Notes: generated by a model not told the origin, from the sequence alone. A stretch of DNA of 64,000 bases from Candidatus Omnitrophota bacterium (GCA_028716705.1 JAQUPI010000004.1:656-64655), one strand, 5' to 3'. Shown: positions 1-55,129, counted from the first letter of the stretch. Numbers and translations are program-made.

Positions 1-80
1 AATATTTTCTTTGGGCAAAGCGTTACGCAAGCACCGCATCCAACGCAAAGTTCCTCATCGATCATCACTATCTTTTCCAT
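1..80 (-). CDS. 4Fe-4S ferredoxin-like protein, N-terminal fragment (gene continues left of window)
   Basis: Reverse complement of 1..80 reads ATG GAA AAG ... = MEKIVMIDEELCVGCGACVTLCPKKI, a CxxCxxCxxxCP 4Fe-4S motif. An AGAAAGAGAGG RBS-like sequence lies just upstream (right) of the ATG at 80. Confidence 0.55.
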   Translation of the reverse strand, partial: MEKIVMIDEELCVGCGACVTLCPKKI

Positions 81-229
81 ATTTCTCTGGCCTCTCTTTC
101 TCTGGTGTTTATAATTTTACCACAGATTATGGGTAACCAAAAGAATAAACCGGGAGGGACTAACCGTAGGAAATATTAGACATTACAACAAGGATAAGCT
201 TTGCCCCAAAGAAAAATTCTCTGCTCATC

Positions 230-550
230 CTAAAAAGTAACGATCTTATCACTTTCTTTAACGATTTCGTACATATCCCTCATAGTCGAAATCGGACACA
301 TATCAGAACCTTCCTGGCCCCTGCCCTTGATACACATCCCACAGGCATAGATCTTGCCTCCGGATTTCAGGAAATTATCCGCCTGTTCAATAGTATTAAA
401 TTTACCTGTGCTTAGTTGCTGATACTCAACGCCCTTTCCCATAAAGAAAACTTTCACCTCATCCTTATGGCCAAGGGCAAAATTAGCGTAACGTAAAGCA
501 TTCCAGCAAGTTTCAACATCATTGCTTGAGATTATAATTCCTATTTTCAC
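230..550 (-). CDS. DsrE/DsrF-like sulfur-relay family protein
   Basis: 106 aa. Pattern MKIGIIISS...KVFFMGKGV...IYACGMC matches the DsrE/DsrF/DsrH-like small alpha/beta proteins. Confidence 0.55.
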   Translation of the reverse strand: MKIGIIISSNDVETCWNALRYANFALGHKDEVKVFFMGKGVEYQQLSTGKFNTIEQADNFLKSGGKIYACGMCIKGRGQEGSDMCPISTMRDMYEIVKESDKIVTF

Positions 551-638
551 TTCTAACCTCCCAGGTTAAAAGATCTTCATAGCGATACACAGGCCCCGCA
601 GCCAACACAAAGCTCTGCGTCAATGATCACTATTTTAC

Positions 639-1349
639 TCATATTTCTATAACCTCTCCCTCTTGGGCCTTTATAAAATTCTGTCCAAACGCTAGTTGCA
701 TTGCCTCTGTTGCGCGCCTTCCTGTGCAATGCATAGGCGCGATCCTGCGCACACTCAACTCCTGCAGTTTCTTTATTGTATGCTCATTCATTTCACTTGT
801 ATTATTCTTAAGGTGAAAACCCCCGATAAGGGTATGTGCATTCATTTGAAAACGTTCTTTAACATACCTGACAATATTCACTATTCCGGGATGAGCACAC
901 CCGCATATTATCGCCGACCCATTGGCAGATTTTATAATTGCCGACTGCTCATATATTTTGCGGCCGTCAGACTCCCCATAAAGCTCTCCCGTTGAATAAA
1001 TATCATCATTTATCCGGGTGCCCTCTCTGACATCAATAACCTTTACTCCAAATGAAACGACCCTTTCTTTTATGTCCCGCCTGAAGCCAGGACAGATATA
1101 AACTGTAACGTCTTTCCGGATATTCAGCAAATACCATAACCCGGAGATATGATCCCAGTCATCGTGAGATAAAACAATTTTCTTTATTTTCTCCGTTTCA
1201 ACGTTAAACTTCCGTAGATTGTTCAAGATCACGCCCGGATCGCCAAAGGTATCAAATAGGGCCTCTTCTCCGATTAAAAGGGATAACCCCCACCTGCGGA
1301 AGAGCCGTTCCCACTTGCTTGACCCTGCAGCTATAATCCTTATTTGCAT
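639..1349 (-). CDS. MBL-fold metallo-hydrolase
   Basis: 236 aa with SHDDWDHISG and GCAHPG motifs typical of the metallo-beta-lactamase fold. A GAGGGAGAGG RBS sits upstream. Confidence 0.6.
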   Translation of the reverse strand: MQIRIIAAGSSKWERLFRRWGLSLLIGEEALFDTFGDPGVILNNLRKFNVETEKIKKIVLSHDDWDHISGLWYLLNIRKDVTVYICPGFRRDIKERVVSFGVKVIDVREGTRINDDIYSTGELYGESDGRKIYEQSAIIKSANGSAIICGCAHPGIVNIVRYVKERFQMNAHTLIGGFHLKNNTSEMNEHTIKKLQELSVRRIAPMHCTGRRATEAMQLAFGQNFIKAQEGEVIEI

Positions 1350-1350
1350 G

Positions 1351-2088
1351 TTAATGGTTTATTGCCGCCGCCAAATACATAAAGGCCACGCCTAATATAA
1401 AAATGGCCATTGAAAACGTGGCTTTCTTAATATCCTGCTGTTTATGTAATTCCGGTATAAGGTCGCAGCTTGCGACATAAATAAAACCTCCCGCGGCAAC
1501 AGGCATAAGCAATTTCAAGAAAATGTCGCAAGTATTAGCGAGGGCATAGCCGATAGCTGTCCCCAAAATGGCTGTGATGGCTGATAGAAAATTATATAAC
1601 AGCGCCTTATTCCTGCTCAAACCTCTGTAAACCAATACCCCGAAGTCGCCTATCTCCTGAGGGATCTCATGCAAAATAATCGCGATCGATGTAGCCATAC
1701 CGAAATTAATATTAACGAAAAAAGAGGATCCGATTATAAGGCCGTCTATAAAATTATGCACCCCGTCCCCTACGAGGTTTAAGTATGTAAACGTATGTAT
1801 ATCGCATTTTTCCTTATGGCAGTGGCGCCAGTGCAGATATTTCTCCAATATAAAGAATAAGATAAAACCGATGATAACAAACGAATAGACCTCGCCGTGA
1901 ACGCTCTTCTCCGCCGCTTCCGGTATTAGATGTAAAAACGCGCCTCCTATCAAGGCCCCGGCGGAAAAACTGATCAGTAAAAGAAGGACTCTGTCCAGGA
2001 AATCCTCTTTAAAGAGCAGGCTGATAATCCCGACGAAGGAGATTAAACTTACGATAATACTGGCGGCTAAAGCCGCGGCTAGATTCAT
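1351..2088 (-). CDS. ZIP family metal (zinc) transporter
   Basis: Multi-TM protein carrying the ZIP signature HEIPQEIGDFGVL and His-rich loop HWRHCHKEKCDIH. Confidence 0.85.
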   Translation of the reverse strand: MNLAAALAASIIVSLISFVGIISLLFKEDFLDRVLLLLISFSAGALIGGAFLHLIPEAAEKSVHGEVYSFVIIGFILFFILEKYLHWRHCHKEKCDIHTFTYLNLVGDGVHNFIDGLIIGSSFFVNINFGMATSIAIILHEIPQEIGDFGVLVYRGLSRNKALLYNFLSAITAILGTAIGYALANTCDIFLKLLMPVAAGGFIYVASCDLIPELHKQQDIKKATFSMAIFILGVAFMYLAAAINH

Positions 2089-2116
2089 TTATCGCTCTAT
2101 AATCCCTTCGCGATGA

Positions 2117-2533
2117 TCATTTCCTTAGTATATAATCCGCTATCGCCCTGTACAGCGTGCTCACTGATAGTATCGAACAATGCAGATGGTCTTCCGGCAA
2201 ACCTTTAAGCCCGGCAATAACATCTCCCGCGGAAATTGAAAGCGCCTCTTTGATGGTTCTGCCGTCCGCCAGTTTTGCCGCCATAGCCGCGCAGGCGCGC
2301 GTAGCTCCGCAGCCGTCGGTGAAATATTTTATCCGGGTGATTTTACTATTTTCGATCACCAGGTAGAACTCCATAGAATCTCCACAGGGCCCCCTTAAGT
2401 AAGAAGAGCTTACCGGGTCATTCATCCTGCCGAAATATTCTTTTGCGTTGATCAACTTTATTACCTCTTTTGGATAAACAGAGAGGTCTTCGGGGCTATC
2501 ATTATGTATTTCTTTCATTTTATTGTCTCCCAA
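2117..2533 (-). CDS. IscU/NifU N-terminal-domain-like Fe-S cluster scaffold protein
   Basis: Three conserved Cys in IscU-like spacing (GPCGDSMEF, DGCGATRAC, HCSIL). Confidence 0.7.
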   Translation of the reverse strand: MGDNKMKEIHNDSPEDLSVYPKEVIKLINAKEYFGRMNDPVSSSYLRGPCGDSMEFYLVIENSKITRIKYFTDGCGATRACAAMAAKLADGRTIKEALSISAGDVIAGLKGLPEDHLHCSILSVSTLYRAIADYILRK

Positions 2534-3363
2534 ACTTTCCTTACCTCATTTGCCGCAGCGCATTCCGCGTACTCAACAATGGTTTTACCTTCAACCAGCG
2601 CCTTAACAACTGCTTCGTCAAAAGGGATCCGTCCTGCAACCGGTATATTATTCTCCCCGCAAAACGTCTCTATAGTCTCTGCTATCGTAAGATTCAGGTC
2701 GTATTTATTTATTGCTAACTTAACGCCAATGTTAAAGTGTTCAGCTACTTCTATTACACGTTTGGCATCATGCAATCCGGAAAGAGTCGGCTCGGTTACG
2801 ATCAAAGCGCAGTCAACCCCCGATAAGGAAGCGATAACCGGGCATCCAATACCGGGAGGCCCGTCAATGATCACGTAATCAAGCGCCTGTTTTTCCGCTA
2901 ACTCTTTGCCGGCCTTGCGTATCTGTGCCACAAGCTTCCCTGAATTCTCTTCGGCAATCCCAAGTTTCGCGTGCACAAAAGGCCCGTATTCTGTATCGGA
3001 AACAAACCATTCACCCGCGATATTCTCTTCCATGCGGATAGCTCCATACGGGCATATATAACTGCAAAGGGCGCATCCCTCGCAGAAAAAACGTTCAATC
3101 GAGCAATCGGATCCTATTGCCCCGGATCTACATACTGAAATGCATTTCCCGCATTTCTCGCAGAGTTTATTATCAATAACCGCGGTTTGCCCGCTTCTAA
3201 ACTCATGGCGTTCTTTTAAAACTGGATGCAGTAAAAGATGAAGGTCCGCCGCGTCCACATCGCAATCAACCATGATCTTATTTTTGGCCAAAGCGGCAAA
3301 CGCTCCCGCGACAACCGTTTTACCTGTCCCGCCTTTTCCGCTAATAACGGCTATTTGCTTCAC
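2515..3363 (-). CDS. MinD/ParA-superfamily P-loop ATPase with inserted 4Fe-4S ferredoxin domains
   Basis: Walker A GKGGTGKT at the N-terminus. Two Cys clusters (CEKCGKCISVC, CEGCALCSYICP) and a C-terminal MinD-like region. Confidence 0.8.
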   Translation of the reverse strand: MKQIAVISGKGGTGKTVVAGAFAALAKNKIMVDCDVDAADLHLLLHPVLKERHEFRSGQTAVIDNKLCEKCGKCISVCRSGAIGSDCSIERFFCEGCALCSYICPYGAIRMEENIAGEWFVSDTEYGPFVHAKLGIAEENSGKLVAQIRKAGKELAEKQALDYVIIDGPPGIGCPVIASLSGVDCALIVTEPTLSGLHDAKRVIEVAEHFNIGVKLAINKYDLNLTIAETIETFCGENNIPVAGRIPFDEAVVKALVEGKTIVEYAECAAANEVRKVWETIK

Positions 3364-4210
3364 TCTTTATCGCGCGGATATTAAGATATAAGTTAATAAA
3401 TTTGTCCTGATACGAAGCGTCCTTTTTTATAATGGGCATTCCTTCCGAATAACTAACCGCTATCTCCCTGCTAAAAGGGATTTTCATCAAAATAGGCATA
3501 TTCTCCTGCTTACAATACTCTTCAACCTTACCATCGCCGATATCAGAGCGGTTAATGACTACGCCGAATGGTATCTTTAATTTTCTCAATACCTCAACCG
3601 CTAAAATCAAGTCGTTAAGGCCGAAAGGCGTCGGCTCGGTAACTAACAGGCAAAAATCACTCCCTTTAACTGCCGTGATGACCGGACAGGATGTTCCAGG
3701 AGGGGCATCGATAATCACCGTCCTTGTGGGATTGATATACTTCTTCAACTGCCGGACCAAAGGCGGCGACATGGCTTCACCAACATTCAGGCGTCCATGA
3801 ACAAACTGCATATTATTTCTTTCTCCTATCTCAATTACGCCGGTATCTCTATTGGCTTCCTTTATTGCTGTTTGAGGGCAAAGGAGACTGCAGGCGCCGC
3901 ATCCATGGCAAAGATGCGGAAAGACCAAAACGCTCCCCTTCTGGCCGTTATTTCCCGGTAATACAGCGATCGCGTGGTACGCGCAAACCTCCTGGCACCT
4001 GCCGCAATGAGCGCATTTTGCCTCATCAATCTCCGGTACCGGGATATACGCCTCGGTCTTTTCTTTTATAAGAGGTTTCAGAAAAATATGCGCATTCGGC
4101 TCCTCTACATCACAGTCAAGAAACTGGATATTCTTAAGCGACAAGGCCAAATTAACCGCGACCGTTGTCTTGCCTGTCCCGCCCTTACCGCTGGCAACTG
4201 AAATGATCAT
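3341..4210 (-). CDS. MinD/ParA-superfamily P-loop ATPase with inserted 4Fe-4S ferredoxin domains (paralog)
   Basis: Walker A SGKGGTGKTT plus CAHCGRCQEVC and CHGCGACSLLCP clusters. Paralogous to the upstream gene. Confidence 0.8.
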   Translation of the reverse strand: MIISVASGKGGTGKTTVAVNLALSLKNIQFLDCDVEEPNAHIFLKPLIKEKTEAYIPVPEIDEAKCAHCGRCQEVCAYHAIAVLPGNNGQKGSVLVFPHLCHGCGACSLLCPQTAIKEANRDTGVIEIGERNNMQFVHGRLNVGEAMSPPLVRQLKKYINPTRTVIIDAPPGTSCPVITAVKGSDFCLLVTEPTPFGLNDLILAVEVLRKLKIPFGVVINRSDIGDGKVEEYCKQENMPILMKIPFSREIAVSYSEGMPIIKKDASYQDKFINLYLNIRAIKSEANSRY

Positions 4211-4818
4211 ATCAATTGATGGTAAGCTATTAAGACTTCCTGATATTTGCTGCTTGCTTTGCCGGTATTAAAACCCTTCTTTATTAGATACCTTTCTATA
4301 TCGGCTAAAGTAGTTGAGCTGACATCATGTTTTCTGCCTTCGCTGGCATGGATCTTGTCCATCAATGCCATTCCTTCTCCGGTAAAGTCGCTTAAAACAA
4401 TCTTGCCTTCAAAACAAAGCAGGCGAATGAGTTCATCGAGGACTTTATAGGGGCTTGTCAGATGATGGAAGGTGTTTATAGAAAAAATAATGTCAAAACT
4501 TTTATCTTTAAAGCTTAAATATTCGCCGTTTTCAACGCGAAAATCCACAAGATGGTCAAGCCCGAAATATTTAAGATTTAACTTCGCGAACCTTTGTTCT
4601 TCTTTGGAAATATCAAAAGTGGTAAACCTATAGCCCTCCCTGGCCAAGGCGAGCGCAAAATGGCCTTTACCGGTCCCGGCTTCCAATATATCCCCATAAA
4701 TCGGCTGGGCCTTTTCAACGATAAAAGACCTTTCCTTATCTATGTCGCAGCCAAAACTTTTATACAACGCCTTGCGTTCCAGATAGAGTTTGTGGTTTTC
4801 TAAGGCCTCTTTATCCAA
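4207..4818 (-). CDS. class I SAM-dependent methyltransferase
   Basis: SAM-binding motif I (ILEAGTGKGHFALALA) and the overall Rossmann-fold pattern. Confidence 0.7.
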   Translation of the reverse strand: MDKEALENHKLYLERKALYKSFGCDIDKERSFIVEKAQPIYGDILEAGTGKGHFALALAREGYRFTTFDISKEEQRFAKLNLKYFGLDHLVDFRVENGEYLSFKDKSFDIIFSINTFHHLTSPYKVLDELIRLLCFEGKIVLSDFTGEGMALMDKIHASEGRKHDVSSTTLADIERYLIKKGFNTGKASSKYQEVLIAYHQLI

Positions 4819-4819
4819 C

Positions 4820-5029
4820 TCAACCTTCCCGCACCATTCTTATGCCGCATTTAGGGCAGTTCATGGAAGAACAAGGAATGCCTGCCTGATGCGGGACTTT
4901 TGTGCCGCAACCAGGACAAACACAGTTTCCTCCCGGCCCGGCGTTACCAAGATTCCGGCCGCTCCTGCCTATACCTCTGCCCCTTCCAAAGCCCCGGCCT
5001 GAAGGGCCCGCTCCATCGCCTCTGGGCAT
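4820..5029 (-). CDS. small RG-rich zinc-ribbon protein, DUF5320-like
   Basis: MPRGDGAGPSGRGFGRGRGIGRSGR N-terminal low-complexity region followed by CxxC...CxxC (CPGCGTK ... CPKCGIRM). This family is typically found next to NifX-like and MinD-ferredoxin genes. The start is taken at the internal MPRGDG. Confidence 0.5.
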   Translation of the reverse strand: MPRGDGAGPSGRGFGRGRGIGRSGRNLGNAGPGGNCVCPGCGTKVPHQAGIPCSSMNCPKCGIRMVREG

Positions 5030-5075
5030 ATAAATCACCTCCTTGATATTGATAAGCTGCCATAGCTGCTCTTTG

Positions 5076-5453
5076 TTATTTCTTCATTTCCTGTTTTCCG
5101 GAGTGCGATACGACGCTTGGCCCGGAAACCGCGGTAAATCCTCCTTTTTTATATTTTTCAATCGCTTCTTTGACCGAACCTGCTGCTCCGGTAAAAACTA
5201 CTATCCCTGCCGCCTGTAATGTCTGAAAGGCATTCGGCCCGACATCACCTGTAAGTACTGCTTTTACCTGATTAGAGGCGACTAACTGCGCCGATTGAAT
5301 ACCCGCCCCGCCCTGAAACTGGGCGTTAGTATTCTCCTGCGCTTCAAAATCGCCCGTCTTTGTGTCAAAAAAGATGAAATTCCGGCACCGTCCGAAACGC
5401 GGATCTACCCTGGAATCCAAAGTTTTACCTTCCGAGGTTACGCATATTTTCAT
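5076..5453 (-). CDS. NifX/NifB-family dinitrogenase FeMo-cofactor biosynthesis domain protein
   Basis: MKICVTSEGK...PRFGRCRNFIFFD...GAGIQSAQLV...VKAVLTGDVGPNAF is typical of PF02579-type proteins. The start is set at the internal MKICV to avoid the upstream gene. Confidence 0.75.
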   Translation of the reverse strand: MKICVTSEGKTLDSRVDPRFGRCRNFIFFDTKTGDFEAQENTNAQFQGGAGIQSAQLVASNQVKAVLTGDVGPNAFQTLQAAGIVVFTGAAGSVKEAIEKYKKGGFTAVSGPSVVSHSGKQEMKK

Positions 5454-5467
5454 ATGTACCTTCTTTC

Positions 5468-5911
5468 TTAATGGCAGCTTCCGCCCTGGCTGCCGTGCTC
5501 CTTGCATGCATCAAGGCCGCCCAAGGCGTTATTTATGAAATCGTCCAGAGCTTTTTGCACATTACCTGAATAACCAAATACCTGAACGCCTGCCTGGGCG
5601 AACTTTTGCTGCGCGCCCATACCCATGCCTCCGGCTATAATATGCGTAATTCTGTACTTTAATATTTCATCCACCGCGATACACCCGCCTCCGCCGTGAA
5701 CAGCGGTATTCGGCACAATGCGGGTACTCACGATCTTCTTCATACCCTTGTCTATATCCGCCAAAAAGAAATACCTGCACTGCCCGAAATGCGCGCATAC
5801 GTTGCCATGGATACCATTTTCGTCTTCCAGCACGACCCCTACTCTCACCTTTGTGTCAAAACCCGGCATTCGAACACCTCCTTGCTTACTGTTATTGGAA
5901 ACCATTTTCAT
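5468..5911 (-). CDS. NifX/NifB-family dinitrogenase FeMo-cofactor biosynthesis domain protein (second copy)
   Basis: VGVVLEDENGIHGNVCAHFGQCRYFFLADID...HIIAGGMGMGAQQKF pattern. The true start may be the internal MPGFDTK. Confidence 0.7.
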   Translation of the reverse strand: MKMVSNNSKQGGVRMPGFDTKVRVGVVLEDENGIHGNVCAHFGQCRYFFLADIDKGMKKIVSTRIVPNTAVHGGGGCIAVDEILKYRITHIIAGGMGMGAQQKFAQAGVQVFGYSGNVQKALDDFINNALGGLDACKEHGSQGGSCH

Positions 5912-5932
5912 TATAAAAGAAAAAAAATTGGC

Positions 5933-6430
5933 TTACTTTTTACCCTTGCATTTTTCGCATAAGCCGTAAAATTGGATAATATGATTTGTGATGTTGAAAT
6001 CGTATTTCCTGGACAGCCCCCTTTCCGTTTCTTTAAGAAGCTCTACCTCTTCATCGATAAAATCGGTATAATCTATGATCTTGTTACAGCCCGTGCAGAC
6101 TAAATGGTGATGATGATGCGCGCCTTTCGGCCCCTGCGCCAGCTCATAACGGGCTCTCCCCTCCCCAAAATCAAGCTTATAAACCAGCCCCAGATTAGAC
6201 AATACATCCAGGGTTCTATAAATGGTGGTAAGGCCGACATTCGGATGGCCAGGATGGACTTTCATATAGATATCCTCGGCACTTAAGTGGCCTGCGTGCT
6301 TCGAAAGGACGCCAAGGATCGCCTCTCTGCCCATGGTCAATCTGTATCCGCATCCTTTAAATTTCCCGTGTAACCACGGACGGCCCCTGCAATTTCTATC
6401 CGGCATAACATTTACTCCCTGCTTCATCAT
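5933..6430 (-). CDS. Fur family transcriptional regulator (Fur/Zur/PerR-type)
   Basis: Winged-helix N-terminus (LTMGREAILGVL...HLSAEDIY) and the metal site HHHHLVCTGCNKIID...CEKC. Confidence 0.8.
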   Translation of the reverse strand: MMKQGVNVMPDRNCRGRPWLHGKFKGCGYRLTMGREAILGVLSKHAGHLSAEDIYMKVHPGHPNVGLTTIYRTLDVLSNLGLVYKLDFGEGRARYELAQGPKGAHHHHHLVCTGCNKIIDYTDFIDEEVELLKETERGLSRKYDFNITNHIIQFYGLCEKCKGKK

Positions 6431-6443
6431 AAACAGAAGTCAT

Positions 6444-6458
6444 TGGAAATGATTTCCA
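6444..6458. promoter_or_regulatory. perfect 7-1-7 palindrome TGGAAAT-g-ATTTCCA immediately upstream of the Fur-family gene start; candidate autoregulatory operator
   Basis: Inverted repeat read directly from the sequence, 14 nt from the ATG at 6430. Confidence 0.35.
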
Positions 6459-6505
6459 TTAACAAATTAAGTATACTCTAGGAGCCCCTGCCTGTCAAGA
6501 CAAAT

Positions 6506-7417
6506 TTAAAAATCAACGTGGGCCCTTACGCCTCTCTTATTTAAAAGCTTTCCCGCTAAAAAAGAGATTCCAAAAACAATTCCTATCCCGGTCAAGGCGG
6601 CGGCTATTGTTGCCAAGCCCGCATTTGGGATAAATGCTGCCTGATAATCGGCAAAAACAGCCGGCATCTCAAGATTTTTGAATTGCGCAAATGAGAATTT
6701 TCCGGCAACCCATTCAAGCCCGTCAGGAAAACTGCTGGTAAATGGGCTTAGGCCTGCCGCCAGAACGGCCAAAGCGGCTGACCCCAAAGCAACGGATGTC
6801 TCGTTTTCTCTCCAGAACCGCCCGAATGACTTAAGCGCATAGGCTATCGTAACTGTTAATACCGCCTCTCCTATGCCTATTAACGCATGCACGGATAACA
6901 TCGCCGGCATAATTTTATTAAAAGCGGCTGCTCCTGACCACGAGACTTCAATCGCGCAAGCAGCAGCTGCGGTGATTACAGAGGACACCGAAACTAAAAC
7001 CAGCGCCATTTTTTCATTAAACCCCTTCTCAGTCAACCGCCTCAGAGACCATCCCGCTAAACCCGCTCCTATAAGAGCCATATTTATAATATTAGCTCCT
7101 ATGGCGTTGATCCCTCCGTCGCCAAAAAATAGGGCCTGGACCGCCAAAATGACCGACATTGACAAAATCGCGAACGGGATCCCCAACAAGCTCACTGCCA
7201 ATACAGCCCCTACCAAATGTCCGGACGTCCCGTTTTGCACCGGGTAATTAAGCATTTGCAAAGCAAATATAAGCGCTGTGACTGCCGCGAATCTTGAGGA
7301 AGAAGGTTTTTCCTTACTTTTGCAGGCCCGTAAGGCAGTAAGCGCCACTCCCGCCCCTCCGACCGCGATTGTGACTGGACAAACCGCACCGTTTAACATT
7401 GAAGCTGGTATATGCAT
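6506..7417 (-). CDS. CbiM/NikM-family ECF-type Ni/Co transporter substrate component with C-terminal PDGLE domain
   Basis: N-terminal MHIPASML (the Met-His metal-binding N-terminus of CbiM/NikM). Multi-TM body and a C-terminal ...SFPDGLEWVAGK segment (PDGLE motif). Confidence 0.7.
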   Translation of the reverse strand: MHIPASMLNGAVCPVTIAVGGAGVALTALRACKSKEKPSSSRFAAVTALIFALQMLNYPVQNGTSGHLVGAVLAVSLLGIPFAILSMSVILAVQALFFGDGGINAIGANIINMALIGAGLAGWSLRRLTEKGFNEKMALVLVSVSSVITAAAACAIEVSWSGAAAFNKIMPAMLSVHALIGIGEAVLTVTIAYALKSFGRFWRENETSVALGSAALAVLAAGLSPFTSSFPDGLEWVAGKFSFAQFKNLEMPAVFADYQAAFIPNAGLATIAAALTGIGIVFGISFLAGKLLNKRGVRAHVDF

Positions 7418-7429
7418 TTCATTACCTCC

Positions 7430-7461
7430 TTTCGCTAAATACGATTATTAATTTCGTGCTA
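7430..7461. promoter_or_regulatory. direct repeat TACGATTA(T/G)TAA x2 with 20-bp period between nikR and the nikM-like gene; candidate operator
   Basis: Copies at 7430..7441 and 7450..7461 in the 69-bp intergenic region upstream of the nikM-like start. Confidence 0.3.
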
Positions 7462-7486
7462 CGATTAGTAAAAAAAATAATACATC

Positions 7487-7903
7487 CTACTTGATATCTT
7501 TACCCGTGGTTGACATATTTAAAGCTCCGTGTTTTACGCCTTTTATAGATGTTAAGGTATCCGCTAATAACTGCACTTCTTTAGGGTTCCCCTTTATGGC
7601 GACTATTTCCAGGCAATTATCGTGGTCTAAATGGATGTGCTGCGTGGAAATGATGAGCTTTTGGAAATCGTGCTGTATGTCCGTGATCTTATTTAAAAGT
7701 TCTCTTTTATGGTGGTCGTATATAAGGTTGATCGCTCCCGCCACTTCACGGTCTTCCCGCCATTCCTTTTTCACCAACTCTTGCCTGATCAAATCCCTGA
7801 AAGCTTCGGAGCGATTCGAATAATTTTTATTTTTAATAAGCAGGTCAAACTTCTCCAAAAGGTCTTTATCTAAAGAGATACCAAATCTGAAAACCTTAGG
7901 CAT
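7487..7903 (-). CDS. nikR: nickel-responsive transcriptional regulator NikR
   Basis: Ribbon-helix-helix N-terminus (FGISLDKDLLEKFDLLIKNKNYSNRSEAFRDLIR) and a C-terminal ACT-like domain with His/Cys nickel ligands (HHKRE...HIHLDHDNCLE). Confidence 0.8.
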   Translation of the reverse strand: MPKVFRFGISLDKDLLEKFDLLIKNKNYSNRSEAFRDLIRQELVKKEWREDREVAGAINLIYDHHKRELLNKITDIQHDFQKLIISTQHIHLDHDNCLEIVAIKGNPKEVQLLADTLTSIKGVKHGALNMSTTGKDIK

Positions 7904-7959
7904 TTAATCCCCCATATTACTTTTGTGATGATCGTAGCACTAAAAATACTGCTGTCAAG

Positions 7960-8631
7960 TTATTTCTTTAGCTCTTCAGGATGGTGTTTTATTACTTTCC
8001 CCTCGACCATATAAATAATATCTTCCGCGATATTGGTTGCGTGGTCACAGATCCGTTCAAGATGACGGGCAATTAATAATAACGGCACGGCACGCGGCGC
8101 GGTTGACGGTTCTTTTGCCATATAATCATTGATTAATTCGTCTTGAACTAAGTTTCTTAACTTATCCGCGTCTGAGTCGGATAACACGACCTTATTGGCA
8201 AGCGCTACATCTTTTTTCACGAATGCATCGATAGCGTCTCGCACCATATCTTGGGCGATCACCGATAACTTAGGTATGTCTATGAGGGGCTTCAGGATTG
8301 GTTTATCTACTAACTCTAAGATACGTTGTGATATATCTACCGCTAAATCGGCAATTCGCTCAAGCTCCGCGTTTATCTTCATTCCGGTTGTAATGAACCT
8401 TAAATCTCCCGCCATCGGCTGATGCCTGGCAATAAGATCAATGCATTTTTCGTCTATTACCAGTTCCAGCCGGTCTATTTTGTCATCGCTATCTATTACT
8501 TCTTTGGCGCCCATTTTATCCCGGTTTTTAAGCGCCTCTATAGACTTATATATAGCTTCTTGAGCCATAACTCCCATTTTCAGGATATCTTCGTACAAAG
8601 TCTTTAATTCTTCGTCAAAATGCCTTTCCAT
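7960..8631 (-). CDS. phoU: phosphate signalling complex protein PhoU
   Basis: 223-aa protein with two PhoU repeats, adjacent to pstB. Confidence 0.9.
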   Translation of the reverse strand: MERHFDEELKTLYEDILKMGVMAQEAIYKSIEALKNRDKMGAKEVIDSDDKIDRLELVIDEKCIDLIARHQPMAGDLRFITTGMKINAELERIADLAVDISQRILELVDKPILKPLIDIPKLSVIAQDMVRDAIDAFVKKDVALANKVVLSDSDADKLRNLVQDELINDYMAKEPSTAPRAVPLLLIARHLERICDHATNIAEDIIYMVEGKVIKHHPEELKK

Positions 8632-9046
8632 CTTCCGCCCCTCTTTCTTTTTTCATTTTAGGTAATTCTTTTATTAGATCCAGTGTGTTATTTTTAATTT
8701 GGTCTCTTATTTTCCTAAAAAATTCCATATCTTTATCTTTTGGGTCCTCTATATTCCATTCTATATGTTTATGCGCAGGAACAAAAGGGCATATATCCTT
8801 ACAGCCTAAAGTTATCGCATAATCAAACTCTTTTATAGAAAGTTCGTTAAATCCCTTTGATTTCTGCTGCGAAATATCTATGCCTATCTCCCGCATGACT
8901 TCAACAGCATTTAGATTAATTTTCCCGGATGGTTTTGAACCCGCGCTATATGCTTCTAATATATCTTTCCCAAAATGATTAGCAAGGCCTTCTGCTATTT
9001 GGCTGCGGCAAGAGTTTTCTATGCACACGAACAATATTCTCTTCAT
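8615..9046 (-). CDS. arsenate reductase (thioredoxin-coupled ArsC) / low-molecular-weight protein-tyrosine phosphatase family
   Basis: ILFVCIENSCRSQIAEG CX5R P-loop. The start is set at the internal MKRILFVC. Confidence 0.7.
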   Translation of the reverse strand: MKRILFVCIENSCRSQIAEGLANHFGKDILEAYSAGSKPSGKINLNAVEVMREIGIDISQQKSKGFNELSIKEFDYAITLGCKDICPFVPAHKHIEWNIEDPKDKDMEFFRKIRDQIKNNTLDLIKELPKMKKERGAEDGKAF

Positions 9047-9050
9047 AAGA

Positions 9051-9806
9051 TTAACCGTATCTGCCGGTAATATAATCTTCTGTACGTTTATCTTCTGGCG
9101 CGGTGAAAATGATATCGGTCTTCCCAAATTCAATTAGTTCGCCTAAAAGCATAAAGCCGGTATCATCTGAAACTCTGGCCGCCTGCTGCATATTATGAGT
9201 GACTATTATTATAGTATATTTATTCTTCAGTTCACGCATTAATTCTTCTACTCTTGCGGTTGCCTGCGGATCTAAGGCCGAACAAGGCTCATCCATTAAC
9301 AATACATCGGGCCTAACAGCGATAAGCCTGGCGATACAAAGCCTCTGCCTCTGTTCCAATGATAACATCAAAGCCGGATGATTAAGCCTGTCTTTTAATT
9401 CATCCCACAGGAGAACATCCTTCAGGCTTTTCTCAACAATTTCATCTAACTTATCTCCGGATGAGCCTCTTCCATGGATCTTTTCCCCAAAGACAATATT
9501 TTCATAAACTGACAACGGAAATGGATTCGGACGCTGGAATACCATCCCCACTTTTTTACGCAATGCTACTAAATCCGCTCGGGAATCCAGGATATTCGCG
9601 TCGTCGATCAATACTTCCCCGCTCATGCGTACGCCTTCGATTAAATCATTCATGCGGTTAAAAACCCGCAACAAAGTAGACTTACCGCACCCCGAAGGGC
9701 CGATGATGGCGGTAATCTTATTTACCTCAAAGTCAGAGTTTACGCCTTTAAGGGCATGAAAACCGCCGTACCAAAGATTGAGGTTTTTAGTAGTTATTTT
9801 GGGCAT
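9051..9806 (-). CDS. pstB: phosphate ABC transporter ATP-binding protein PstB
   Basis: Walker [13 protein letters not shown] signature LSLEQRQRL, and the PstB-specific N-terminus. Confidence 0.9.
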
Positions 9807-10552
9807 TATCCGAATCTTCCCCTAATATAGCCGTCCGTCCGTTTATCTTGCGGGGCGGTAAAGATTTTATCGGTCGCGTCTATCTCAATAAGTTCCCCGC
9901 TTAAAAAAAACGCGGTCCTATCCCCCACTCTGGCCGCCTGCTTCACATTATTCGTGACTAAAACTATGGTATATTTTTCTTTCAGTTTTACCATCGCGTC
10001 TTCTACTTTCGCGGTAGAAATCGGGTCAAGCCCGGAACACGGCTCATCAAATAAGATCACTTCCGGGTCCACAGCCAATGTCCTGGCAATACAAAGGCGC
10101 TGTTGTTGCCCTCCCGACAATTTGAAAGCAGATTCATCCATCCGGCCCTTCACCTCTTCCCACAAATACGCCTGCCTTAGCGCCTGCTCAGTTTTCTCTT
10201 CCAACTTCTTTCTATTTCTTTCGCCTTGCATCCTGACGCCATAAACCACATTTTCAAATATGGATAACGGCAGCGGCAATGGCAGCGCGAAAACCATCCC
10301 TATCTTACGGCGTAATTCCTCTATGTCGATCCCCCTGATATCTTTTCTTTCCAGCTCTACCGCTCCCGTCATCTTAAAGGCCGCGTTAAGGTCGTTTAAA
10401 CGGTTAAGCGTGCGTAAAAAGGTTGTCTTTCCGCTGTTTGCCGGTCCGATCACGCTTAAAATCTCATTCGACCGTATCTCCAGATTCACTTGTTTTAACG
10501 CATGGATAGAACTGAACCAGATATTTAAGTCGTGTACCTCAAATTTTACCAT
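9806..10552 (-). CDS. pstB: phosphate ABC transporter ATP-binding protein PstB (second tandem copy)
   Basis: Walker [10 protein letters not shown] and ABC signature LSGGQQQRL. Highly similar to the downstream pstB. Confidence 0.85.
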
Positions 10553-16683: not shown

Positions 16684-17391
16684 TTAGCAAGAAAAGAGCT
16701 GCCGGAATGCAGCCCGGATAATCCCGCTGCCTGTTTGGAAGAAATTATTAAAAAAGTTTACGTAGGAAAAATTCTTGAACATTATATTCAGGCAAAAAGC
16801 AAACAGCATCACATTGAGTATATACACAAAAGAGAAGCCGAATATATAGTTCGCTTTCAAAAAATCGCCTTTCTTCGAACGCAGGGTTTTGGCGCTGTAG
16901 ACCAGATGCAGCACCAGGCTGAAGCTCAAAAGAAAAGTGAAATACCCTGTCCCTTCCTCGCTGAGCGCGAAAGACGCAAGCAAATATATGATAAAGAGCA
17001 GGATAGTATAGATTGGCAGAAGATACGGGGCCACCTTCACCAGTGGCTTTAAGAATTGAAAGACCATCTCCAAAAGCCTGTGGCCTTTTGAGTAAACGAT
17101 AGCCGGTTCATAAATGAAAAGATATATCACAATAAAACTGGAAACCCCGGCCCACAGGTAACTCTGAAATACCGCTTCTATGCCGCTCAACTCATTAAGA
17201 AAAGCCGCGGTCACCGAAAAGACAAAAGGCAGCAAACATACCCCCATCAAAAGCTTGAGTATGCCGAAAGCGTTTTGATATAAAAAAGCCGGTTTCGGTG
17301 AAGAAACCTCTCCGGAGTCAGCGGGAGCTTCCAGGTTCAGTTTGTTAAAGATCGCGTTGTCCTCTTTACCGGGAAATTCTTTCTTTGCCAT
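16684..17391 (-). CDS. hypothetical polytopic membrane protein
   Basis: 235 aa with at least 5 hydrophobic helices and no recognisable motif. Confidence 0.5.
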
Positions 17392-20996: not shown

Positions 20997-21716
20997 TCAT
21001 ATTGTCTCGCAATTTTCTCCAAGGAGTTTCCTGAATTTCTCCAGTTTCTTTTTATCTACAGCCAGGACGCCTATTTCGGCGGTTGTCCGCACCGGAGAAT
21101 TCAGTTGTATCTTGTCCGGGCCTATCTTGCCGGCGATATCTTTTAACTTCTTCATGTGCGGCAGGTCGTCATTTATCCCCTTTACCAGCATCACTTCCAG
21201 CCAGATCCTGCCCTTAAATTCTTTCCTTAACTCTATCAAGCCGTTTATAATGTTTTCGATTTTTATTCCCGGCGCAGGGCGGTCGATCCGCTCGAATTTT
21301 CCGGAAACCACCGCGTCGAGAGAAGGAACGATCAAATCGGCGTTCAGCAAGTCCCTGCGCACGGAAGGCTCCGCCAGCAAAGAAGCGTTAGTAATGACCG
21401 CTATAGGGGCGGAAGTGATCTTTTTTATTTCTTCGATCAGGCCGCCTAATTTAATATTCAATGTAGGTTCTCCGCAGCCAGAGAAAGTGATGTAATCCAA
21501 ATCTTTCGCTTCTTTCGGGTTATTCTGCAGCCAGAGTTTTAATTCCTCCGCTATCTCTTCCGTACGGATATATTCTCTCCTCTGTGAAGTTGTGCCGGAG
21601 CCGGCGCCCAATTGGCAATAAACACAGTTGAAGCTGCATACCTTATAAGGTGTCAGCGTTATCCCCAAAGATAGCCCCAGCCTCCTCGATTTAACCGGAC
21701 CGTATATATATTTCAT
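20997..21716 (-). CDS. radical SAM domain protein
   Basis: CSFNCVYC (CxxxCxxC) near the N-terminus after YGPVKSRRLGLSLGI. Glycine-rich SAM-binding segment FSGCGEPTL. Confidence 0.7.
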   Translation of the reverse strand: MKYIYGPVKSRRLGLSLGITLTPYKVCSFNCVYCQLGAGSGTTSQRREYIRTEEIAEELKLWLQNNPKEAKDLDYITFSGCGEPTLNIKLGGLIEEIKKITSAPIAVITNASLLAEPSVRRDLLNADLIVPSLDAVVSGKFERIDRPAPGIKIENIINGLIELRKEFKGRIWLEVMLVKGINDDLPHMKKLKDIAGKIGPDKIQLNSPVRTTAEIGVLAVDKKKLEKFRKLLGENCETI

Positions 21717-41007: not shown

Positions 41008-42513
41008 TTAATTGACTTTTATCCCCTCCATTTTAACTCCTTCGAAATTCATCGAGGAAGGAACCGTATAGGTAACCACGAGCTTTGGCTGGTAACTGCC
41101 GCCCGCCTCATTGGTATTGACATATACACTTTCGCTATAATTTCCGCCCGTACCATCAATATCCCTGCTGCTGCGTATCGCTAATTTTGTAGTCCCTGTC
41201 TTGTTTATCCATCCAAGCTGGTTCAGAGTTATATCGTGATACCCTGCCGGAGAAAGGGCGCTGGCAAGCATACTGCTTCCGCCGTCGCCGCTGTAATAAG
41301 TATAACTGTAGTCGCTTGATTGCAGCGGGTCATTGGGATAAGTCGGCTGTCCGTTTTGTATCCGCACATAAAAGTCGGTGAACGGATTTATGCTTTGCCC
41401 GGCCCCGTAAAGAGAAAGTGTGGCGGCAGTTACAGTTGCGCCTGCTCCAAGGGAAGAAGTATCAAAGAAGACAAAGGAGCGCTCTATACCGCAGGTAAGG
41501 CAGTCCCCCCAATAGCTGCAACAAGAACCTATATAAAGTATCCCCTGAGTGGTTCTGTTATACGTGGCTGAAGCCGCGGTGCGGGCTGTAGCATAAGCGC
41601 CACAACCCCACAAAGTTCCGTCGCTGGCGCTGGTATAAAAAGTCGCTATATCGCCTATCTCAAGGGGATACACGGCGCTGTTAAATACTGAAAGCGGCAC
41701 CCTTTCCTCATCCGGGCCGGCCGCATACTTGCCCAGAGTCAACCTGTAATTGCCTTTCTGGTTGTAAATAATCCTGACCTCTGCCCCCGGGTTCCCGTCG
41801 AAGATCCAGGAGCCTTGCATCTGGCCCTCGATCAGCCTGAGCCGGCGCCTGGCAATGCCGTAATCCCATTCCAGGACATTCTCTTTGTAGTTTGCGTTCA
41901 CCGCGTCTACAGGCAGCAGTTTTGCGCCGCCAGAAACCGGTACTTCTTTGCCATCCAATAAGAGCTGCGGACTGAAAATGAGCCGATCACCGGGTTTAGC
42001 CAGGTCTGTCCGGTCAAGAACGGTCAAATCCACGCGGTTTGCGTCTACTAACGCCAGAAAAACGTTTGCTTTCGAGCGGAATCTTCCTGGTGAAACCTCT
42101 TTCCAGCCGGCTTCTATCTTATTCCCGCGGTCGTCGACCCTAGGCAAGCCGTCGGTAACCATAAAATGCTTGCCTGATCTTAAATCCCGGTAAAAACGCG
42201 CAAATTTGCTGCGCTGGCCTGGGCCGCCAGGCGCATAGTCCTGAAAAAGCTCCACGTAATCCTTATCAATGCCCTGCCTTTCCAGCTCGCGCAAGAGCTC
42301 GGGATCAGTTACCTTTTTCTTGTGATCTATTACCGGCAGAACCATGCCCTGAGGAGGCAAAACGGGATTATCTTTGAAGGGCCGGACTAGCGGATGAAAA
42401 GGCTCCAGAGCCTCTTTTATCCCAGTGGCTGCAGCTGCCGCAGCGATAGTTAATAACACGGCAAAAAGAGTTACTGCGCAGTACAAAGCCATACTTACCC
42501 TCTTATTGCGCAT
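41008..42513 (-). CDS. hypothetical secreted protein
   Basis: 501 aa with an N-terminal signal anchor or peptide (ALYCAVTLFAVLLTIAAAAAATG) and no recognisable domain. Confidence 0.5.
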   Translation of the reverse strand: MRNKRVSMALYCAVTLFAVLLTIAAAAAATGIKEALEPFHPLVRPFKDNPVLPPQGMVLPVIDHKKKVTDPELLRELERQGIDKDYVELFQDYAPGGPGQRSKFARFYRDLRSGKHFMVTDGLPRVDDRGNKIEAGWKEVSPGRFRSKANVFLALVDANRVDLTVLDRTDLAKPGDRLIFSPQLLLDGKEVPVSGGAKLLPVDAVNANYKENVLEWDYGIARRRLRLIEGQMQGSWIFDGNPGAEVRIIYNQKGNYRLTLGKYAAGPDEERVPLSVFNSAVYPLEIGDIATFYTSASDGTLWGCGAYATARTAASATYNRTTQGILYIGSCCSYWGDCLTCGIERSFVFFDTSSLGAGATVTAATLSLYGAGQSINPFTDFYVRIQNGQPTYPNDPLQSSDYSYTYYSGDGGSSMLASALSPAGYHDITLNQLGWINKTGTTKLAIRSSRDIDGTGGNYSESVYVNTNEAGGSYQPKLVVTYTVPSSMNFEGVKMEGIKVN

Positions 42514-48390: not shown

Positions 48391-48407
48391 CTTTTTATTC
48401 GAAGCTG

Positions 48408-55040: not shown

Positions 55041-55129
55041 TTCATTCCTCCTTATTTTGATGATGCCCAAAAAAGTTTTATTTATATTTTTGATAATATC
55101 AGAAAATAAAGACGTGATAAGATTTTGCA

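Follow-up and report, generated by a model that had tools for sequence, protein, structure and literature searches.

Which function is served by a compact gene cluster that combines two NifX-like proteins, two MinD-type ATPases with ferredoxin inserts, an IscU-type scaffold, and a small protein rich in arginine and glycine (RG-rich)? The cluster lies at the left end (positions 1 to 7903) of a 64,000-nucleotide (nt) stretch of DNA from Candidatus Omnitrophota bacterium (GCA_028716705.1, JAQUPI010000004.1:656-64655), which was analyzed at its full length and is called the window here. An earlier reading made from the nucleotides alone (the sequence-only reading) had treated it as an anonymous metal-cofactor neighborhood. 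Its core can instead be matched to a named and partly characterized system, the ORP ("orange protein") system of Desulfovibrio (PMC6345978, PMC8359166), while the accompanying statement that clusters of NifX-like and MinD-ferredoxin proteins are widespread in anaerobes and functionally unresolved was borne out. The function of ORP has been open since 2011, and the building and trafficking of Fe-S clusters by strict anaerobes in sulfide are poorly understood. On balance, and with modest confidence, we consider that the minus strand of about positions 1 to 6500 constitutes a Fur-family-controlled operon for an ORP-type metal-sulfur cluster machine that handles Fe-S clusters. To our knowledge, the Fur-controlled variant with scaffold, methyltransferase, MBL-fold protein, and a new small-protein family has no description in the searchable literature, and a paper on ORP function later than 2021 was not found in the literature searched.

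Gene content and layout of the cluster

Gene calling gave 14 genes and a 21-codon duplicate of the ferredoxin 5′ end on the minus strand of positions 1 to 7903 (Table 1), instead of the 13 genes counted in the sequence-only reading. In the order of transcription, they encode NikR, CbiM with a PDGLE domain, Fur, the NifX-like proteins NifX1 and NifX2, a protein of 69 amino acids (aa), a methyltransferase, ATPase A, ATPase B, a NifU_N-type scaffold, a ZIP transporter, an MBL-fold protein, a DsrE-like protein, and a ferredoxin. Every domain call of that reading was verified by profile searches, on the minus strand and at the positions of Table 1. The genes indeed all lie on the minus strand, but no weight can be given to this. 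Essentially every real gene of the 64-kb window sits on the minus strand, with a negative GC skew throughout, and co-orientation within positions 1 to 7903 is therefore uninformative. The junctions from the 69-aa protein to the MBL-fold protein measure 1, −4, −23, −4, 28, and 1 nt; overlapping and 1-nt junctions are typical of translational coupling. On account of this tight packing, together with a synteny conserved at 80 loci from many phyla, the cluster is not a random assembly. Over 15,029 nt, the window differs by 1 mismatch from contig JAQTUM010000014.1 (L001) of a Candidatus Omnitrophota metagenome-assembled genome (MAG), GCA_028710245.1, and this near-identity allowed us to look 2.4 kb beyond the left edge, up to the end of that contig.

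Relationship of the core genes to the ORP system

In the ORP complex of Desulfovibrio, Orp3 and Orp4 are MinD-like ATPases, each with a pair of [4Fe-4S] motifs; Orp5 is a [2Fe-2S] protein of small size; Orp8 is the ORP itself, a NifX-family protein with a non-covalently bound Mo-Cu-S cluster; and in Orp9 (MrpORP) an Mrp/NBP35 part is joined to a "Di-Nase" domain. The sigma-54 activator OrpR controls the genes (PMC6345978, PMC8359166). Orp3, Orp4, and Orp8 copurify, and MrpORP passes Fe-S clusters to these three proteins (PMC6345978). Weak NCBIfam matches of both NifX-like proteins and both ATPases of the window to MrpORP were the first pointer to this system. The ORP locus of Desulfovibrio sp. 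X2 (L010) and a related locus (L011), retrieved through ORP homologues, served as references for BLASTP comparisons. ATPase A was 40 to 46% identical to the first ATPase of these loci but only 28 to 32% identical to the second, and ATPase B was 44 to 48% identical to the second and about 30% identical to the first. NifX2 shared 43 to 44% identity with their ORP, and NifX1 shared 34 to 35% with the second NifX protein encoded downstream of the ATPases. NifX2 is a single-domain PF02579 homologue of the ORP (Orp8) of D. gigas and D. vulgaris, and the two adjacent, paralogous MinD-type ATPases carry two CX2CX2CX3C motifs each, as expected of Orp3 and Orp4. Because of the similarity of NifX2 to ORP, the one-to-one orthology of the ATPases, and the Di-Nase type of NifX1, we assign the core of the cluster by homology to the ORP system. 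Further points of likeness are the presence of small Gly/Arg-rich and Cys-rich proteins, the restriction to anaerobes, and a dedicated regulator that adjoins the genes. Upstream of ORP in Desulfovibrio sp. X2 (7059-7900 of L010), two such proteins are encoded, one of them NifX-like, 168 aa long, and with a tail rich in Cys, Arg, and Gly, the other a GQ/GR-repeat protein of 112 aa; cationic Gly/Arg-rich proteins therefore recur in ORP loci across phyla.

The window also departs from the Desulfovibrio system. An Mrp/NBP35-Di-Nase fusion (MrpORP/Orp9) was not found, nor was any further P-loop paralogue in the window at E<1e-3; the stand-alone Di-Nase form is also present in Desulfovibrio sp. X2. 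The window likewise lacks a homologue of the Zn_ribbon_8 protein that L011 and 43% of the related loci encode and that is probably the counterpart of Orp5 (Dde_3197), the small Cys-rich protein whose gene follows those of the ATPases. The 69-aa protein, a different Cys-rich small protein whose gene precedes the ATPase genes, was rejected as an Orp5 homologue, as it resembles no open reading frame (ORF) of the Desulfovibrio loci. Neither a sigma-54 site (TGGCAC-N5-TTGC) within positions 1 to 8000 nor a gene for an enhancer-binding protein was detected. Control by sigma-54 and OrpR as in Desulfovibrio was ruled out on the grounds that the cluster has no −24/−12 site and no such activator; a Fur-family regulator with a conserved operator takes their place. 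Additions relative to Desulfovibrio are the NifU_N scaffold, the S-adenosylmethionine (SAM) methyltransferase, the MBL-fold protein, and the 69-aa protein.

ATPase pair, NifX-like carriers, and scaffold

Both ATPases have the deviant Walker A motif GKGGTGKT (GKGGxGKT in general form) and the D-x-PPG-T signature of Walker B/switch II that is found in Mrp/NBP35/ApbC carriers and related SIMIBI proteins (NifH, CooC, HypB). Unlike in these proteins, switch I is followed by an insert that makes up a full 2x[4Fe-4S] ferredoxin domain. Homologue alignments showed a conservation of at least 0.98 for the ferredoxin cysteines of ATPase A (C66/69/72/76 and C101/104/107/111), and all eight were invariant in ATPase B. 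Each ATPase also has one extra cysteine just after switch II (C175 of A, C174 of B; PPGxxC-P), which does not vary in either paralogue, nor in Desulfovibrio. In the SIMIBI proteins NifH, Nbp35, CooC, and HypB, cysteines in the equivalent position are ligands of a metal or cluster where the two subunits of the dimer meet. A nucleotide-gated metal or cluster site at the interface of an A/B heterodimer is, by analogy, a reasonable inference for the window, where the conserved Cys lies next to switch II at the predicted dimer interface. The window ATPases differ from Mrp/NBP35 in having this single switch-II Cys in place of CxxC and in forming an obligate pair of paralogues. A solved structure with the MinD-ferredoxin architecture was not found by sequence search.

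NifX2 gave D. gigas ORP as its best match in the PDB (2WFB, E=2.6e-20, residues 2 to 113), with MTH1175 nearly equal (E=5e-20). Its homologues have no conserved set of Cys ligands, and NifX2 is therefore expected to hold an anionic inorganic cluster non-covalently. NifX1 matched positions 273 to 364 of the NCBIfam MrpORP model (E=1e-12), and H27-F-G-x-C31, H58, and C122 form its conserved set. A CXHFGHCE motif and a C-terminal Cys have been reported for MrpORP's Di-Nase domain (PMC6345978); NifX1 carries the corresponding CxHFGxC motif and C-terminal Cys. Its start (5855-5912, minus strand) consists of the ribosome-binding site and the first five codons (MPGFD) of a DUF5320 gene, as seen by comparison with 10 related loci. 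The true DUF5320 gene has, by this comparison, evidently been lost from this genome through an in-frame deletion that kept the Fur operator.

IssA and NifX domains of the MTH1175 clade bind anionic thioferrate, aided by a cationic Gly/Arg-rich tail (PMC5524996). The window resembles IssA of Pyrococcus furiosus, with its thioferrate nanoparticles, in that MTH1175 and ORP are equally strong matches of NifX2, an unstructured cationic Gly/Arg-rich segment accompanies the NifX domain, and EncFtn-like iron-handling genes are present in relatives. However, the segment is not a C-terminal tail here but resides on separate small proteins (the 69-aa protein and, in relatives, DUF5320). A long IssA-type cationic tail (IPR003731 plus a Gly/aromatic-rich C terminus) was not found on NifX2, which ends 12 residues after the domain. 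In addition, the window cluster comprises ATPases and a scaffold.

The NifU_N protein carries C45, D47, C70, H113, and C114, all 100% conserved among 29 homologues, and scored below the NifU_clost/IscU equivalog cutoffs (82 bits versus 188, NCBIfam). Conservation of Cys ligands, whose absence the sequence-only reading would have taken as a refutation, was found in the homologue alignments: the ferredoxin cysteines of the ATPases are 98 to 100% conserved, and the IscU-type set and the His/Cys set of NifX1 are kept. The combination of an IscU-type scaffold with its full ligands and a Fur-box-like operator over the promoter is reminiscent of Fur-repressed Fe-S assembly operons such as suf of E. 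coli. Unlike suf, ISC, or NIF systems, the window has no cysteine desulfurase, SufBCD, or HscAB, and the scaffold is partnered by NifX-like carriers and MinD-ferredoxin ATPases.

Synteny across related loci

Relatives were sought in one genome per species. At least 560 were found, and 80 loci were kept, from Omnitrophota, Dehalococcoidia/Chloroflexota, Planctomycetota, WOR-3, Stahlbacteria, Actinomycetota, and some archaea. Percentages refer to the 30 fully flanked loci (Omnitrophota, Dehalococcoidia, Planctomycetota, WOR-3, and archaea), in which the flanks extend for 6 kb or more to either side. The core was conserved across phyla in this analysis of neighborhood conservation, a check that the sequence-only reading had proposed: ORP-type NifX was present in 97%, ATPase A in 93%, ATPase B in 87%, and the second NifX in 80%. 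True DUF5320 (60%), DUF134 (50%), a CoA_binding protein (50%), and Zn_ribbon_8 (43%) were intermediate; Fur, the methyltransferase, NifU_N, and the MBL-fold protein each reached 40%; EncFtn-like proteins (23%), NikR (7%), DsrE (7%), and ZIP (3%) were sparse. CbiM was not recorded in this set and occurred in 2 of the 80 loci (L067 and L079). By these frequencies, the block of 13 genes does not make up a single conserved unit: NikR and CbiM form a separate block with its own near-consensus promoter that is seen in about 7% of the related loci, and DsrE, ZIP, CbiM, and NikR are best regarded, from their distribution, as lineage-specific additions or neighbors.

Two architectures were distinguished. 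The Fur type, in Omnitrophota and Planctomycetota, reads Fur-DUF5320-NifX-NifX-[Fd]-[EncFtn]-small protein-methyltransferase-ATPase A-...-ATPase B-NifU_N-...-MBL, where Fd stands for ferredoxin. The second is the DUF134 type of Dehalococcoidia. The window conforms well to the Fur type and stands out in two ways, by the ZIP gene after NifU_N (found at the same position in the Omnitrophota locus L078) and by the missing true DUF5320 gene. At DUF134-type loci, among them L007, L014, and further ones of Dehalococcoidia, Fur gives way to a DUF134 protein whose C terminus is rich in Cys, and a Fur-type operator is missing. With OrpR in Desulfovibrio, three different regulators therefore serve the same core. 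Relevant literature on DUF5320 or DUF134 was not found.

A family of RG-rich, zinc-ribbon-like small proteins

The 69-aa protein starts with an MPRGDGxGP motif, continues with a disordered Gly/Arg-rich segment, and ends in a Cys5His domain (CxCPxCG-x5-H-x5-C-x4-CPKCG). In an alignment of 26 homologues, the MPRGDGTGP start and a Gly/Arg-rich linker of variable sequence were followed by the module C36-x-C38-P-x-C41-G...H47...C53...C58-P-K-C61-G, of which C36, C38, C41, H47, C58, and C61 were invariant. AlphaFold2 gave predicted local distance difference test (pLDDT) values below 50 for residues 1 to 31, indicative of disorder, and of 77 to 88 for residues 33 to 69, which were modeled with a β-hairpin. 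A Foldseek search of this model against the PDB returned only non-significant zinc-ribbon- or rubredoxin-like matches (E≥0.85). We propose that the Cys5His knuckle binds Zn or a small Fe-S center.

The sequence-only reading had labeled the protein DUF5320-like. This label does not hold: PF17253 matched only residues 4 to 31 (E=0.49, 12 bits versus a threshold of 27), the C terminus is a Cys5His knuckle and not a coiled coil, and a true DUF5320 protein co-occurs in L007, L009, and 60% of the loci. A profile search of 1.84 billion cluster representatives returned 2,226 members, 724 of them at E≤1e-10. By these profile and alignment data, the protein represents a distinct, uncharacterized family, and the annotation of thousands of "hypothetical" proteins of 65 to 75 aa can be corrected accordingly. 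The domain was also found in fusion proteins of 600 to 1,516 aa (P0240 to P0243, P0249, P0250, P0253, and P0258) of the types PDZ-PDZ-NifX(ORP type)-[small-protein domain]x3-5-NifX and Rhodanese-[small-protein domain]x3-NifX. Such domain architectures strongly indicate that the small-protein domain works with ORP-type NifX domains and with sulfur transfer.

The Gly/Arg-rich N terminus of the 69-aa protein could serve as a cationic counter-ion. The methyltransferase gene adjoins the small-protein gene at the 1-nt junction, read as translational coupling. Among the related loci, the enzyme goes with Fur: it was encoded in 22 of the 27 Fur-type loci and in 4 of the 52 others. Methylation of arginines of the RG-rich protein by this enzyme is a speculative possibility.

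A Fur-family regulator with two operators

In the Fur-family protein, two CxxC pairs are accompanied by an HHHHH motif, and its N terminus is extended by a stretch that contains Cys; the protein is 73% identical to the Fur protein encoded at the same position in L009. Among NCBIfam models, it scored best with Bacillus-type Fur (131 bits), followed by PerR (86) and Zur (41). Two cysteines of the extension (residues 1 to 25, MPDRNCRGRPWLHGKFKGCGYR) are partly conserved (C6, 0.59; C19, 0.79) and might constitute an additional metal or redox site.

A 7-1-7 palindrome is present just downstream of the −10 element of fur and again over a −10-like element upstream of nifX1 (Table 1). These are the only two matches of the motif in 64 kb, compared with 0.05 expected, and the divergent locus L009 has it at both positions. 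We scanned the 80 loci for it within 5 kb upstream of the small-protein gene, allowing up to 2 mismatches. It was found in 19 of the 27 Fur-containing loci, with two or more sites in 12, and in none of the 52 loci without Fur. The consensus of the 32 sites, ATAATGGAAATCATTTTCATTAA, differs by one base per half-site from the classical Fur box, TGATAATnATTATCA. Fur is predicted from this co-occurrence to be the dedicated regulator of itself and of the operon, and not the mere flank that the sequence-only reading had seen in it. As the operators overlap promoters, we infer repression by the metal-loaded protein and derepression on metal scarcity. In metagenome contigs, the exact palindrome precedes fur and DUF5320 and, in unrelated contigs, ZnuA/TroA-type binding proteins and a TonB-receptor plug. 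Given such varied genes, it is a generic Fur-family operator that does not decide between Fe, Zn, and Mn. The sensed metal is most likely Fe, with Zn or Mn as possible alternatives.

Proposed function and alternatives

For the operon as an ORP-type machine in Fe-S handling, the following course is conceivable. The metal-loaded Fur-type repressor would sit on the two 7-1-7 operators, at the fur promoter and at the nifX1 promoter, and the operon would be derepressed when the sensed metal, most likely Fe2+, becomes scarce. Iron, possibly entering through the ZIP transporter, and sulfide, possibly supplied by DsrE-like or rhodanese-type partners, would be assembled on the NifU_N scaffold or caught as inorganic Fe-S anions on the NifX-like carriers. 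The A/B ATPase pair would then combine an ATP-dependent dimer switch with electrons delivered through its ferredoxin inserts and through the 62-aa ferredoxin, and in this way load clusters, reduce them, or release them to client proteins. A complex of the ATPases and the carrier would be expected by homology to the Orp3-Orp4-Orp8 complex of D. vulgaris. That Fe-S rather than Mo/Cu is carried, in which direction it is passed on, and what ATP hydrolysis contributes are likewise presumed parts of this scheme.

What speaks for this scheme is above all the company that the core genes keep. The recurring partners are an IscU-type scaffold, two kinds of NifX-like protein, Gly/Arg-rich small proteins, EncFtn-like, rhodanese, DsrE, CoA_binding, and pyridine-nucleotide-disulfide-oxidoreductase genes, and the Fur-type switch; judged by gene content, they favor the handling of Fe-S or metal-sulfide clusters over division, Mo-Cu chemistry, and nickel insertion. 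The Gly/Arg-rich small proteins are reminiscent of the cationic thioferrate-binding tail of IssA (PMC5524996), and the transfer of Fe-S clusters from MrpORP to Orp3, Orp4, and Orp8 would fit the same view (PMC6345978).

Several points weigh against it. The only biochemically defined cargo of an ORP is the Mo-Cu-S cluster of D. gigas, and the only phenotype reported for D. vulgaris is a morphology and cell-division defect (PMC6345978, PMC8359166). The Desulfovibrio genes are under a redox-sensing sigma-54 activator and not under Fur (PMC6345978, PMC8359166); regulation, and possibly the role, therefore differs between lineages. A cysteine desulfurase or other sulfur donor was not found in the window, and DsrE and ZIP are so rarely conserved that they cannot be essential parts. 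As for iron as the signal, the Fur-like protein stays below every NCBIfam equivalog cutoff, and the ZnuA-family genes that carry the same palindrome may transport Zn, Mn, or Fe. Finally, the Omnitrophota data consist entirely of MAG sequence.

A more far-reaching version seems possible to us but rather doubtful. Fur-type and DUF134-type clusters together may represent a widespread route of Fe-S supply or storage in anaerobes that is independent of cysteine desulfurase. Free sulfide and Fe2+ would condense to anionic inorganic Fe-S, held non-covalently by ORP/IssA-type NifX proteins; Gly/Arg-rich small proteins (the 69-aa family and DUF5320) would neutralize these anions; and the heterodimeric MinD-ferredoxin ATPase would mobilize the Fe-S with ATP and electrons onto the IscU-type scaffold and clients. 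If this were true, the Mo-Cu cluster and the division phenotype in Desulfovibrio would be side effects.

Cell division was the original proposal for the Desulfovibrio complex, as a role in septum placement. Applied to the window, it would place the MinD-like ATPases at the membrane or pole through C-terminal amphipathic helices, where they would help to position the septum, with the clusters as redox sensors only. The ATPases are homologous to MinD, and their alignment shows a conserved hydrophobic, periodic C terminus (F/I-x-x-L/I-W-x-x-I); morphological defects on loss of orp expression and a polar location of MrpORP have been reported (PMC6345978, PMC8359166). Across the 80 loci, however, min, fts, or par genes were not among the recurrent partners, which were NifX-like, NifU_N, EncFtn-like, rhodanese/DsrE, and MBL-fold proteins and metal regulators instead. 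Control by a Fur-type operator and the features that the ATPases share with Mrp/NBP35 carriers (D-x-PPG-T and the invariant switch-II Cys) also disagree with a positioning system, which we consider quite unlikely.

Quite improbable, too, is a role in handling Mo/W-Cu thiometallates, in which the ORP-type protein would sequester clusters of the [S2MoS2CuS2MoS2]3- type for detoxification or Mo/W storage, in the manner of D. gigas ORP. The 43 to 44% identity of NifX2 to ORP proteins, with an alignment along the whole of 2WFB, speaks for such a role, and the non-covalent binding of the ORP cluster (PMC6345978) fits the absence of conserved Cys in NifX2. The recurring partners found, though, are related to Fe and S (NifU_N, EncFtn-like proteins, rhodanese fusions, and the Fur-type regulator). 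The families queried in the window and the 80 loci gave no marker of Mo/W or Cu, Mod, Tup, and Cop not having been specifically searched in the loci.

Maturation of nickel centers, as suggested in the sequence-only reading, would have NikR, the CbiM-PDGLE importer, and the ATPases supply Ni to Ni-Fe enzymes encoded elsewhere. The bona fide NikR and the NikM/CbiM-type S component are encoded directly upstream, nickel-insertion ATPases of the CooC and HypB types belong to the same SIMIBI class, and a few related loci have NikR or CbiM nearby (L051, L064, L067, and L079). Yet nikR, with its own promoter, lies outside the two Fur operators, and its sparse occurrence and that of CbiM across the loci do not speak for a common function. 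In addition, the ATPases have ferredoxin inserts instead of the CooC CxC and HypB CH motifs, and no hydrogenase or carbon monoxide dehydrogenase (CODH) genes were found in the window. The block is moreover missing from the related Omnitrophota locus L009, where fur directly follows RtcB-SerRS; SerRS/RtcB and fur of the window are separated by genes for a two-component system, pstSCAB, an ArsC-like gene, phoU, nikR, and cbiM. NikR and CbiM are therefore neighbors and not parts of the cluster, and by synteny they appear as an independent nickel/cobalt-uptake unit upstream of it. The nickel idea thus received no support, and we regard it as very improbable.

An ordinary nif accessory cluster or a chance juxtaposition of unrelated genes, for which PF02579 as the NifX/NifB/NafY domain and the co-orientation of window genes whatever their function could be cited, is hardly tenable: the domain fusions link the components, the core synteny reaches 80 to 97% across phyla, and neither the scanned ORFs of the 64-kb window nor the 2.4 kb adjoining it on the left include a nif gene (nifHDKEN). 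There, where nifHDK would have made this a nif locus, L001 has the remainder of the ferredoxin gene, followed by a small ORF of membrane type, by tRNA-Ser(CGA), and by the gene of a large serine recombinase. The sequence-only reading was right in seeing no nif context.

The locus type ties ORP genes to an IscU-type scaffold, to a Fur-type switch with a defined operator, and to a new small-protein family fused to NifX and rhodanese domains, and it shifts the working hypothesis for ORP from cell division and Mo-Cu chemistry toward Fe-S handling. From these links follow testable predictions on operator binding, on metal-dependent expression, on complex formation between the small protein and NifX, and on what the ATPase pair carries.

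Accessory and neighboring genes

Table 1. Genes and control elements in the left part of the window, in order of position
Feature	Position	Strand	Evidence and remarks
Ferredoxin, 2x[4Fe-4S] type, 62 aa, last gene of the cluster	1..79, continuing off the left edge	minus	Fer4-type matches; complete in L001 (14950-15138)
DsrE-like protein, 106 aa	230..550	minus	PF02635, E=3.7e-11
Truncated 21-codon duplicate of the ferredoxin 5′ end (MSKIVIIDAELCVGCGACVSL, then stop)	577..641	minus	Side-by-side comparison with ferredoxin start
MBL-fold protein, 236 aa, COG1237/TM1679-like	639..1349	minus	Pfam; PDB 7DCK, E=2.8e-29; TM1679, E=1e-22
ZIP-family divalent metal importer, 245 aa	1351..2088	minus	PF02535, E=1.8e-48; weak ZupT-like match
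IscU/NifU_N-type scaffold, 133 aa	2117..2518	minus	PF01592, E=1e-19, 71.4 bits versus threshold of 22
MinD/Mrp-class ATPase B, 2x[4Fe-4S] ferredoxin insert	2515..3363	minus	Pfam; orthologue of second Desulfovibrio ORP ATPase
MinD/Mrp-class ATPase A, 2x[4Fe-4S] ferredoxin insert	3341..4210	minus	Pfam; orthologue of first Desulfovibrio ORP ATPase
Class I SAM methyltransferase, 203 aa	4207..4818	minus	Pfam Methyltransf_11, E=2.5e-20; no NCBIfam equivalog
RG-rich Cys protein, 69 aa	4820..5029	minus	Homologue alignment, AlphaFold2; in no Pfam family
NifX-like 2, ORP/Orp8 type (IssA/MTH1175 clade)	5076..5453	minus	PF02579, E=2e-25
NifX-like 1, stand-alone Di-Nase type	5468..5869	minus	PF02579, E=6e-17
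Fur-type operator 2, AATGAAAATgGTTTCCAAT	5894..5912	minus	Copy TGAAAATgGTTTCCA at 5896-5910; overlaps TATAAT −10-like element upstream of nifX1
Fur-family metalloregulator, 157 aa	5933..6406	minus	PF01475, E=2e-30
Fur-type operator 1, AATGGAAATcATTTCCAAT	6442..6460	minus	Perfect 7-1-7 palindrome TGGAAATcATTTCCA at 6444-6458, just downstream of fur −10
Putative sigma-70-type fur promoter, TTGACA-17-TATACT	6470..6498	minus	11/12 matches; consensus match only
CbiM/NikM-type energy-coupling factor (ECF) S component with PDGLE, 303 aa	6506..7417	minus	PF01891, E=3e-42; PF13190, E=5e-9
NikR nickel-responsive repressor	7487..7903	minus	NF003381, 190.8 bits versus cutoff of 105
Putative nikR promoter, TTGACA-16-TACGAT	7931-7958	minus	Near-consensus match

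The MBL-fold protein has the conserved residues H62, D66, H67, C151, H153, H179, H207, and C208. The DsrE-like protein, with C70, C73, and C85 conserved, is 58% identical to its counterpart in L009. Of the 80 related loci, 16 have a member of the ferredoxin family within the cluster. The ferredoxin duplicate at 577-641 includes the ribosome-binding region and overlaps the stop codon of the MBL-fold gene; it looks like a scar of a rearrangement around the DsrE-like gene. In the CbiM-PDGLE protein, M1-H2 and H67 are present; in the NikM2 structure, the N-terminal Met-His and His67 are reportedly metal ligands. The T and A components of such a transporter, CbiQ and CbiO, were not identified among the scanned window ORFs of at least 150 aa. 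Upstream of cbiM, TACGATTAnTAA occurs twice as a direct repeat with 20-nt spacing (7440-7471), and an inverted copy at 7921-7944 overlaps the −10 element of the nikR promoter. As a candidate NikR operator, this 10-mer was neither over-represented nor confirmed by comparison.

Left of the window, the gene that comes after tRNA-Ser(CGA) in L001 (15598-17441) lies on the opposite strand and encodes a large serine recombinase of 509 aa; about 30 codons of the recombinase C terminus are repeated near the end of the contig. A mobile element is probably integrated at tRNA-Ser. The remainder of the window encodes housekeeping and envelope functions, comprising pst/phoU, SerRS, RtcB, lpx genes, BamA, DnaB, phosphoribosyl pyrophosphate (PRPP) synthase, transketolase, and TPR proteins. 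Between pstB and phoU lies a gene (8615-9046, minus strand) for an ArsC-like low-molecular-weight phosphatase, and PstB is encoded by two tandem paralogues (9051-10552, minus strand). Two giant ORFs on the minus strand, 48408-55130 (2,240 aa) and 57441-63965 (2,174 aa), gave no Pfam match at E≤1e-5 and flank a 759-aa Laminin_G_3 (ConA-like lectin) protein; ORFs 16684-17391, 41008-42513, and 46633-48456 likewise had no Pfam match. About 15 kb from the cluster, a 239-aa radical SAM protein (20997-21716, minus strand) is homologous (E=1.7e-46) to a radical SAM gene found inside the ORP-type cluster of about one-quarter of the related loci.

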